A DNA stretch of 64,000 nt from a virus, in the IMG/VR virus record IMGVR_UViG_3300008266_000018, positions 1 through 64,000 of that record; one strand, given 5' to 3'. A program made the translations under genes and the position numbers. The notes under the pieces were generated by a model. That model worked only from the letters and a program-made list of their open reading frames with translations. It had not been told where the DNA came from and did not search any database. Each line of letters opens with the position of its first letter. Positions within the stretch are counted from its first letter, which is position 1. Below are positions 54,002-55,367 of the stretch, one piece after another.

Positions 54002-54591
54002 TTTAAATGTAAATCAAGGATGCACTGATTTACAAATAAGTCAAGCACTTTAATATCAGAAACTTTGGGCCAAATTACATAGTAATCAGCATCTTCTCTA
54101 ACTTTAGGATAATGAAACGATTCTTCTTCGTTTGGTGGCTGAACTTTTACGCCATTTTTTGGATTATAACATGAAACATCAATCAAGCGACCTTTTAAAA
54201 CGTGCTTCAACCAAAATACTTCATCTTTAGAAAAATAGTTATGACGTATATCGGTTATGCAAATGTATTGAGACTTAGATTCCAAGATCTTCTTAGTTAT
54301 AATATCTGTCCAAAACTTTCCATACGATTCCAATCTCTTTTGCTTCGCAAAAAGAACGAGATCGTTTCTAACCAAGTCCTTCTCTTCTCGCGTACAATTC
54401 AAAATGTCAACATTGTATTTTTTAATAAGGTCTTCCCTTAGAAGAATTTTCAATTCATCTGCTAGGGCGAATCTTTCGAACGGTAGTTTCTGCGATAGCA
54501 GAGAGAAGAACGTATCCTTTCCACTACTGGCTACGCCAGACAATCCAAGGATTGTACGAGAACCGAGATTTGATTTATTAAGTTTTGACAT
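53998..54591 (-). CDS. Deoxynucleoside monophosphate kinase-like protein
   Basis: GLSGVASSGKDT P-loop, ALADELK, ITDIR; start at 54591 or 54618. Confidence 0.75.
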   Translation of the reverse strand: MSKLNKSNLGSRTILGLSGVASSGKDTFFSLLSQKLPFERFALADELKILLREDLIKKYNVDILNCTREEKDLVRNDLVLFAKQKRLESYGKFWTDIITKKILESKSQYICITDIRHNYFSKDEVFWLKHVLKGRLIDVSCYNPKNGVKVQPPNEEESFHYPKVREDADYYVIWPKVSDIKVLDLFVNQCILDLHLK

Positions 54592-54653
54592 GCAACCAAC
54601 GCTGGAAAAGGAATCCATCTCTAATATGTATTTATATTAGATCATAAACGACA

Positions 54654-54935
54654 TTATTCAAGCCAAATCAGTTCTTCGCAACCTATTTCGTAGGCTTTCG
54701 ACCCTATTTCGTAGAGCCTAGCTAATGACTTGAATAAATATTTACCGCCAAAATCCGATTGAACTTTTTTTATTGCTCGCCTCACCGACTAGGTGAGTCT
54801 ATCGATCTCGTCTTACGAACGCCGCTTTTTCCCGAAATAACGTTGAAGTTCTTAGCTTCACTTGATCGATGCCTTTCTACGGGCCTGATGTCTCTTACGG
54901 TTCACGCTGGATTCCCAGCAAGCTAGTAATCGGTT
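54654..54935 (-). ncRNA. Putative structured non-coding RNA of unknown family
   Basis: ORF-free, GC-elevated interval with nested stems, G-U pairs on the minus strand only, and an upstream promoter. Confidence 0.6.
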
Positions 54936-54941
54936 GTCGTG

Positions 54942-54970
54942 ACCTTAGTCCTCCTTAGAAGATTTGTCAA
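54942..54970 (-). promoter_or_regulatory. sigma70-type promoter TTGACA-N17-TAAGGT driving the putative ncRNA
   Basis: -35 at 54970-54965 and -10 at 54947-54942. Confidence 0.65.
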
Positions 54971-55367
54971 CCTCTTTTTTCAAAAAATCTAAAATGTGCA
55001 AAATGTTCCACAAATCCTTGGGTTTTAGCTCTTTTGGATCGCACGTTTCCGAGTCGTCCTTGATGACTTCTTGGCAGAACCAATTTACTCTGTCCGCGAT
55101 ATTGCAAGCAAGTGCGCCATTAATTTTAATATCTTGCTCCATCTGCTCCAACTTTCTATTTAAAAAATAAATCTTCTCTCCGTCAGGATTAGATTCGCAA
55201 GCTACAAAATTTTCAGACAATAAATTATTCAACGCGCAAACAACTGGGTATTTGTCGTTGTCATCCTCATGGATAACCAAAAGTTTATTTAAATCCTTCG
55301 GGTAATTAAAATAATCGTTTTCAGAAAACCAGTTAATTAGTTTTAAAGATGCTTCTAAAGTAGTCAT
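54945..55367 (-). CDS. Hypothetical protein
   Basis: 140-aa ORF with ATG start. Confidence 0.65.
   Translation of the reverse strand: MTTLEASLKLINWFSENDYFNYPKDLNKLLVIHEDDNDKYPVVCALNNLLSENFVACESNPDGEKIYFLNRKLEQMEQDIKINGALACNIADRVNWFCQEVIKDDSETCDPKELKPKDLWNILHILDFLKKEVDKSSKED

Follow-up and report, generated by a model that had tools for sequence, protein, structure and literature searches.

Evidence for an undescribed structured RNA class at the head of a phage sigma-factor operon

Introduction

Structured RNAs at the heads of phage operons are known from a few systems. The put sequence of phage HK022 is ∼70 nucleotides (nt) long and forms two stem-loops, and the nut site of phage lambda is a short boxA/boxB pair. 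To our knowledge, large and intricate conserved RNAs are rare, and nearly all of those that are understood are ribozymes, riboswitches or the cores of RNA-protein machines. Here, we describe an element in a 64,000-nucleotide stretch of viral DNA (positions 1 to 64,000 of IMG/VR record IMGVR_UViG_3300008266_000018; hereafter the window) that very probably represents a previously undescribed class of structured RNA, running on the minus strand from ∼54935 to ∼54620. We use the name class A for the window RNA and its relatives. It is ∼310-320 nt long in the window and about 400-450 nt in its long forms, and it occupies the gap between an open reading frame (ORF) of 140 amino acids and a gene for a deoxynucleoside monophosphate (dNMP) kinase-like protein.

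Like put and nut, the class A RNA would be a structured RNA made first from an early promoter that heads a long phage operon, but it differs from them in its length of ∼310 nt, its two domains and its pseudoknots, and it has no sequence similarity to either. With riboswitch and T-box leaders, the ZTP type included, it shares the 5' leader position, invariant junction nucleotides and variable peripheral hairpins, and, as in RNAs of the ZTP type, two subdomains are docked by a pseudoknot. Unlike riboswitches, class A exceeds most known aptamers in size, matches no Rfam riboswitch and is followed by a first gene that varies (kinase, glycosyltransferase or sigma factor), and the analysis found no terminator or Shine-Dalgarno-sequestering platform in it. 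GOLLD, ROOL and raiA/OLE-type RNAs are likewise large, have complex folds and come mainly from uncultured phages and metagenomes; class A is smaller, matches none of their Rfam models and is fixed at the head of a sigma-factor operon and not beside tRNA genes.

A 2023 survey of candidate structured RNAs in IMG/VR describes motifs 29-151 nt in length. A 2026 preprint on the mining of non-coding RNAs (ncRNAs) describes reverse transcriptase-associated RNAs, which are unrelated to class A.

Results

A conserved, covarying fold on the minus strand

Fourteen relatives of the window RNA, from ∼9 distinct lineages, were found on viral and metagenome contigs by scans guided by the flanking proteins, by three DNA-pattern scans of IMG/VR and by a model search of whole viral records. 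Six of them form a close set (L001, L005, L007, L008, L009 and L087), and six further lineages are represented by L025/L033/L092, L095, L096, L097, L108 and L094, the last of which has only the core in common with class A. The metagenome scan with the kinase alignment gave 148 relatives, 80 of which were kept, and a looser core pattern gained one true member (L108) together with 14 chance matches in coding DNA. A covariance model of the core, R1, matched the window and each record once and no more, at 79-100 bits, and had no match in the loci that carry the other RNA classes described below. An apparent closeness of the RNA to contig ends was set aside as an artefact of locus storage.

Conservation and covariation, not folding energy, set the element above chance. 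With minimum-free-energy z-scores of -2.0 (minus strand) and -2.2 (plus strand), it cannot be told from chance by folding energy alone. The non-coding DNA, by comparison, is 94-95% identical in the close relatives, versus 79-81% for the flanking proteins. When one structure with two pseudoknots was laid on the seven window-type sequences, 98.5% of 472 pair cells held standard pairs, versus 31-42% in slid controls in which the 3' partners were moved by 1-3 columns. Twelve pairs were altered on both sides (0-3 in the slid controls), and the covariation score was reached by none of 500 shuffles. In the distant lineages the helices P2, P4, P5 and P7 are rebuilt from different sequence and the pairing is kept. 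The helix tables of these lineages were anchored on conserved motifs and are partly by eye, the alignments are small (∼9 independent lineages), and RNAduplex, run with wide windows, gave too much noise for a control across lineages. A preliminary description of the window, which had proposed a multi-branched structured element here, had pointed to covariation among homologues as a check, and this covariation is strong both in the window-type alignment and among the distant lineages.

The strand of the RNA follows from its G-U pairs, which fill 36 of 370 helix cells and would be C-A mismatches on the opposite strand. The same argument for a minus-strand RNA had been made in the preliminary description from the window by itself, and it holds in the alignment. 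The stretch 54592-54944 has no conserved reading frame, and since stops or frameshifts break both overlapping ORFs in close relatives, the element is not coding.

In addition to the stems noticed earlier, we found a 5-base-pair (bp) pseudoknot, PK, between the two domains. Its 5' strand (AGUUC, 54761-54765, minus strand) abuts the 3' strand of P2, the helix that closes the 5' domain, and pairs with GAACU (54670-54674) in the junction of the 3' domain. In every lineage a perfect complement of the PK 3' strand stands directly 5' of the P2 3' strand, and PK covaries at four of its five positions, being AGUUC/GAACU in the window, AGUCC/GGACU in L095, AGUCA/UGACU in L096 and AACCC/GGGUU in L108. 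PK probably stacks on P2.

Some other candidate helices were rejected. The long-range stem CGUAAGAGACAU/AUGUCGUUUAUG suggested by RNAalifold has its outer half broken in L007 and L008, and no counterpart was seen in other lineages; a 5'-terminal stem UCAC/GUGA is lost in L087 at the aligned columns; and the 3' side of a GCC/GGC hairpin around GUAAAAA is GAC or GGG in other members.

Comparison with known RNA families

Searched with Rfam 15 (4227 models) at the gathering threshold, the whole window gave two tRNAs only, and positions 54300-55300, searched at E up to 10, gave only a chance match to a small nucleolar RNA (E = 4). In 29 related loci, neither gathering nor permissive thresholds gave anything on the element. 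The cmscan comparison proposed in the preliminary description therefore gives no known family on the element, in the window or in its relatives. L113, the record with L097, carries a phage transfer-messenger RNA (tmRNA; RF00023, 127 bits) at L113:606-1022, ∼500 nt 5' of the class A RNA, and the detection of this genuine tmRNA indicates that the Rfam models work on these phages. ARAGORN found two tRNAs elsewhere in the window and no tmRNA. There was no Rfam match to 6S RNA, and the supported fold is multi-branched with pseudoknots and not a long rod with a central bubble. With blastn, 1 kb of the region had no match among 50,697 GenBank phage records, and the core pattern is absent from 185,579 prokaryote species genomes (one genome each). 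As judged by the Rfam 15, GenBank phage and prokaryote genome searches, the class A RNA is new as a family.

Promoter and 5' end

The promoter proposed in the preliminary description, TTGACA-N17-TAAGGT, is present on the minus strand at 54942-54970, with the -35 element TTGACA at 54970-65, a 17-nt spacer and the -10 element TAAGGT at 54947-42. An A-rich tract precedes the -35 element, and the promoter overlaps the 3' end of the 140-amino-acid ORF (54945-55367, minus strand; stop codon TAA at 54945-47), which belongs to no known family. Transcription is predicted to start at ∼54935, from what would be a promoter of the host sigma-70 type. A consensus promoter scan did not list it because TAAGGT fits only three of the six positions of the -10 consensus. 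The -35 element is unchanged in all seven window-type sequences, and most of the other lineages have a TTGAC/TTGC-type -35 and a TAnnn(T/C)-like -10 a few tens of nucleotides 5' of the first paired strand, the -10 being poor in L108. This promoter-like element, and in most lineages the A-rich tract too, is kept although the upstream genes differ between lineages, which lends the predicted start near 54935 some indirect support.

The 5' domain

The main stems listed in the preliminary description are all present on the minus strand where it had placed them: CCGAUU 54933-28/AAUCGG 54760-55 (P2), the hairpin GCUGG-GAAU-CCAGC at 54919-06 (P3), AUCGAUC 54870-64/GAUCGAU 54807-01 (P4), which encloses UGAAG-N7-CUUCA, the hairpin CUCACC-N5-GGUGAG at 54797-81 (P6) and the 12-bp stem 54737-26/54665-54 (P7).

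The P2 5' strand (AACCGAUU, 54928-54935) pairs with 54754-54760 (AAUCGG plus one base) according to both the anchored helix table and the window-type alignment; its outermost pair in the window, 54935 with 54754, is an A-A mismatch. P2 is CCGAUU/AAUCGG in the window, UCGAUU/AAUCGA extended to 9 bp in L087, GCAGUG/CACUGC in L095 and GCGGUG/CACCGC in L096, L097 and L108. In L095-L097 and L108 it is lengthened by a second helix with the extreme 5' end of the transcript, for example UUCUUUUAA/UUAAAAGAA. P3 (UGCUGG-GAAU-CCAGCG, 54905-54920) is 100% paired in the window-type alignment, with two pairs altered on both sides and three on one side (L087, L008).

The core domain (54801-54870) comprises P4, P5, P4a, a clade-specific hairpin and the junctions ACGUUAYUnCGGGA and GGCGUU, which are invariant. 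In P4 the partner sequences differ among lineages and the pairing is kept, as AUCGAUC/GAUCGAU, CCAAUC/GAUUGG, UGCAUUC/GAAUGCA, UCUAAUC/GAUUAGA and CUGAUU/AAUCAG. P4 is 63% paired in the alignment-based count, compared with 6-7 of 7 pairs in the motif-anchored table; the lower figure arises because MAFFT and model R1 misalign the P4 3' strand of the window clade, which has a 7-8-nt insertion. The clade-specific hairpin, which the preliminary description had taken for one with a GUAA loop, is UCGU-AAG-ACGA (54818-08), an insert confined to the clade of the window. P5 (54860-56/54848-44, loop CYAAnAA) is 100% paired, with covariation at all four pairs, and P4a (54843-41/54821-19) consists of 3 invariant bp. 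The tetramer CCCG (54880-54883), within the invariant run GCCCGUAnAAAG, has a candidate partner in CGGG (54831-54834), with which it may form a pseudoknot across P4; both tetramers are invariant in all 15 sequences, so covariation is uninformative for this contact.

P6 (CUCACC-UAGUC-GGUGAG, 54781-54797) is 100% paired, with three pairs altered on both sides, and is separated from PK by an A-rich tract. In the long-form RNAs (L095, L096, L097, L025 and L108) P6 has grown into a module made of an outer stem, a CUUAA-type motif, an inner hairpin and a GGAAA-rich strand, and a second copy of the module follows the 3' domain, directly 5' of the first ORF. The 3' halves of the two copies are near-identical within a genome and different between genomes. 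By eye, the enlarged module, with its CUUAA-type motif and small hairpin, loosely recalls boxA plus boxB; the window RNA has the plain P6 hairpin, no boxA-like module and no second copy.

The 3' domain

The 3' domain (54654-54737) comprises P7, P8, P9 and the PK 3' strand GAACU (54674-70), together with two conserved junction strands, AGCUAGG and UGCGAA. Its closing stem P7 (54737-26/54665-54) is 100% paired in window-type sequences, with G-U intermediates. It is 12 bp long in the window; L097 has 14 uninterrupted bp made of unrelated sequence, L096 has 13 of 14 pairs, and the sequence also differs in L095, L025 and L108. P8 (54718-12/54706-00), whose fourth pair is U-G, A-U or G-C, occurs in all lineages but L097, where it was not identified, and its loop is variable. 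P9 (54694-91/54685-82) is optional in the class and absent from L025 and L096. The twin CGAAA hairpins that a companion to the preliminary description had singled out are hence not a conserved feature of the class.

A last hairpin, P10 (UCUAAUAU-N6-AUAUUAGA, 54620-54641), ends 1 nt before an ATG codon, ATG1. In the window-type sequences its stem is invariant and its loop variable; a hairpin of other sequence is seen by eye 3' of P7 in L025, L095 and L108. The 5' arm of P10 is also a weak -10 element (TAATAT), so part of its conservation could be at the DNA level. This -10 belongs to a weak promoter-like sequence, TTGAAT-N16-TAATAT (54633-54660, minus strand), which lies inside the P7 3' strand and the P10 5' strand.

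An alternative pairing of 15-16 bp was seen in window-type sequences, between 54745-54760 and 54668-54683 on the minus strand. It joins the P2 3' strand and a U-rich linker (AAUCGG-UUUUUUGGCG in L001) to the 3' junction strand (CGCGAAGAACUGAUU). Being incompatible with P2 and PK, it could allow a conformational switch; the pairing is lost in L087.

Junction with the operon and synteny

ATG1 (54618-16) and the conserved kinase start, ATG2 (54591-89), both within 54589-54618 on the minus strand, were placed by the kinase alignment and the sequences of the relatives. ATG1 is conserved in all seven window-type sequences and is in the kinase frame only in the window, L007 and L008. In L001, L005, L009 and L087 it opens an ORF of 4-10 codons that closes at or just before the kinase start, and ATG1 is probably not the universal start of the kinase. 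In L001 the short ORF ends in a stop codon that shares bases with the kinase ATG (AUGGUAA), an arrangement suggestive of translational coupling. In the five lineages scanned (window, L097, L025, L108 and L095), the stretch from the RNA to the first ORF has no terminator-like site, and a promoter-like site is present there only in L097, at chance level.

Downstream on the minus strand lie the genes for the dNMP kinase-like protein and a sigma factor of the sigma-70 family, and a 114-amino-acid ORF. The same strand also encodes glycosyltransferases, GDP-mannose 4,6-dehydratase, ribonucleotide reductase, a UvsX-like recombinase, a DnaB-like helicase, an exonuclease and a DnaE-type polymerase. The replication genes thus lie downstream of the element and on its strand, in agreement with its earlier placement upstream of a replication operon. 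Terminator-like sites in the 20-kb operon number 15, versus 9.8 ± 3.3 expected, which is not significant. The operon that follows the RNA is the same although its first gene varies: the window has RNA-kinase-sigma, L097 and L108 have RNA-glycosyltransferase(s)-kinase-sigma, and L096 has RNA-sigma-like-x-glycosyltransferase. With the exception of L094, every class A lineage has the RNA at the front of a sigma-factor operon and on the strand of that operon. In L094/L115 (a ∼40-kb phage) the core is followed by a convergent gene.

The RNA at L115:1100-1650 (minus strand) is divergent and has only the P4/P5 core in common with class A. It lies between a convergent helix-turn-helix-like gene and a small-terminase-like gene of this phage, for which CheckV gives a completeness of 86%.

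Other large RNAs at the same locus

The regions upstream of the kinase gene in other phages hold two further sequence classes of about 350-450 nt. Class B, which is marine and ∼380 nt long (L004:2606-2982, L003:1247-1643 and ∼19 further loci), is preceded by an A-tract/TTGACA promoter and followed by the kinase gene. A 5' pseudoknot, seen by eye, joins a hairpin loop to a downstream GGUGGnnnG segment and covaries as CAUCC/GGAUG, CGCCC/GGGCG and CUGACC/GGUCAG. Class C, about 400-450 nt long (L014:1998-2506, L027:2012-2512 and ∼20 further loci), has the layout promoter, RNA, canonical intrinsic terminator (CCCCC-loop-GGGGG and a U-run) and a second promoter immediately before the kinase start; from this layout, class C RNAs look like separate ncRNA genes. 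A motif similar to the P6 module, GUCUUA...CUAAGGAAA, was seen 3' of the class C terminator.

Quick MAFFT/RNAalifold alignments gave compensatory changes in 22 of 44 predicted pairs in class B and in 25 of 41 in class C. Neither class matches Rfam, and classes A, B and C are unrelated in sequence. Among the 52 kinase loci whose upstream flank is 1.2 kb or longer, 36 carry a class A, B or C RNA upstream according to nhmmer profiles. The RNA is on the same strand as the kinase in all but L055, where a class C RNA is directed away from it.

Discussion

The preliminary description had read the element as a new phage ncRNA or as a long regulatory leader, and had named a structured origin as an alternative. 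The conserved, covarying fold and the lack of an Rfam match support the RNA reading, in that a structured minus-strand RNA stands; a leader is somewhat more likely than a free-standing RNA. The function that we infer for class A from its sequence and setting is that of a cis-acting regulatory leader of the operon, a reading that we prefer tentatively and that falls short of being probable. We favour it because of the leader geometry, the abutting start codon, the lack of a terminator in class A and the constant linkage to the operon. With a promoter upstream and no terminator before the first ORF, the simplest reading is that the RNA is the 5' untranslated leader of the operon transcript. Host sigma-70 RNA polymerase would start at TTGACA-N17-TAAGGT and produce an early transcript encoding the dNMP kinase, the phage sigma factor, the glycosyltransferases and the replication genes, with the class A RNA as its untranslated 5' leader. 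The invariant core could then bind a protein or a small-molecule factor, and docking of the two domains through P2 and PK could set the passage of polymerase or ribosome into the operon. Such control of passage would time the switch to the phage sigma factor.

Several points weigh against a cis-acting leader. Both the transcription start and the read-through into the operon are predictions. No expression platform was found in the element, neither a regulated terminator nor a clear sequestering of the ribosome-binding site, and ∼300 nt with pseudoknots exceeds most cis-regulatory leaders. The weak TTGAAT-N16-TAATAT inside P7/P10 could be where the kinase mRNA starts, giving, like the second promoter of class C, a kinase transcript almost without a leader. 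In L094/L115 the convergent gene after the core makes a leader role impossible. Class C, at the same locus, resembles separate units of promoter, RNA, terminator and second promoter, and the class C RNA of L055 faces away from the kinase. The same arrangements in L094/L115, class C and L055 count in favour of the main rival reading, that class A is instead a free-standing RNA that acts in trans, made early from the strong promoter and released by processing or termination. Its target could be the RNA polymerase, ribosome or a defence system of host or phage, or it could be a ribozyme, and its proximity to the operon would then reflect inherited gene order and not a regulatory link. We regard this as possible but on the doubtful side. 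Its size, invariant junctions and two pseudoknot-type contacts bring class A nearer to ribozymes and 'ornate' RNAs than to simple leaders, and exactly one copy is present per record. What speaks against a trans-acting RNA is that scans of five lineages showed no terminator-like site 3' of the class A RNA, that P10 abuts a conserved start codon and that the RNA keeps its strand and its place at the sigma-factor operon head in all class A lineages but L094.

Two further explanations are much less probable than either of these. The element could belong to a replication origin, its transcript serving as primer or R-loop in the style of ColE1 RNA II or T4 oriF/oriG, or its repeats serving as DNA sites. 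Like those origin transcripts, class A would be a promoter-driven structured transcript adjoining replication genes: it has its own promoter and precedes the block of DnaE-type polymerase, DnaB-like helicase, UvsX-like recombinase, exonuclease and ribonucleotide reductase genes, and it contains a 12-nt direct repeat (54682-93 and 54703-14) and the A-rich tract between P6 and PK. The repeat is not kept in relatives as iterons would be, its copies differing even in close relatives and P9 being absent from L025 and L096, and the G-U-only substitutions and the covarying pseudoknot indicate selection on a folded RNA and not on duplex DNA, which makes an origin very unlikely. We consider it at least as improbable that class A belongs to a known ribozyme or RNA family, for example a group-I-like one, and has diverged so far that covariance models have missed it. 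By eye, the helix order resembles the group I core, with a long-range helix around a P4-P5-P6-like domain that comes first and is joined by A-rich strands, and with the PK strand directly 5' of the 3' strand of that helix, as with P7 and P3 of group I. The topology of the 3' domain differs, in that the PK 3' strand lies within the P7 multiloop, unlike in group I introns, and no G-binding or splice-site features were identified. Intron_gpI (RF00028) had no match in the 1-kb search of the window, made with a limit of E = 10, and none in the other members, and the same is true of every other relevant family. Moreover, the element is intergenic, lying between a stop codon and a start codon and directly 3' of a promoter, and its upstream context varies between lineages (the upstream gene has the orientation of the element in the window and the opposite one in L095 and L108), so that there are no conserved exons.

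It is conceivable, but unlikely on present evidence, that classes A, B and C are analogues or highly diverged homologues of one RNA device in a widespread set of uncultured marine and freshwater phages. Such a device, perhaps a ribozyme or an RNA that acts on the host RNA polymerase or ribosome, would set the moment at which host sigma-70 gives way to the phage sigma factor.

The position of class A would be strategic, since the RNA is predicted to be transcribed first from an early host-type promoter, before the genes for the sigma factor, DNA modification and replication. If it controls the operon, it would represent a new phage route to time a developmental switch; if its action is in trans, it would become a candidate for a new ribozyme or host-takeover RNA. 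In both cases, class A offers a defined target of ∼310 nt for structure probing, ligand screening and cryo-EM.

We would also like to point out the gene content of the operon itself. Between 30900 and 54620 (minus strand), the dNMP kinase, several glycosyltransferases and GDP-mannose 4,6-dehydratase are encoded beside the DnaE-type polymerase, which has no relative above 28% identity among cultured phages. From this mix of genes, the DNA of this phage, whose lineage has no cultured relative, may carry sugar modifications.

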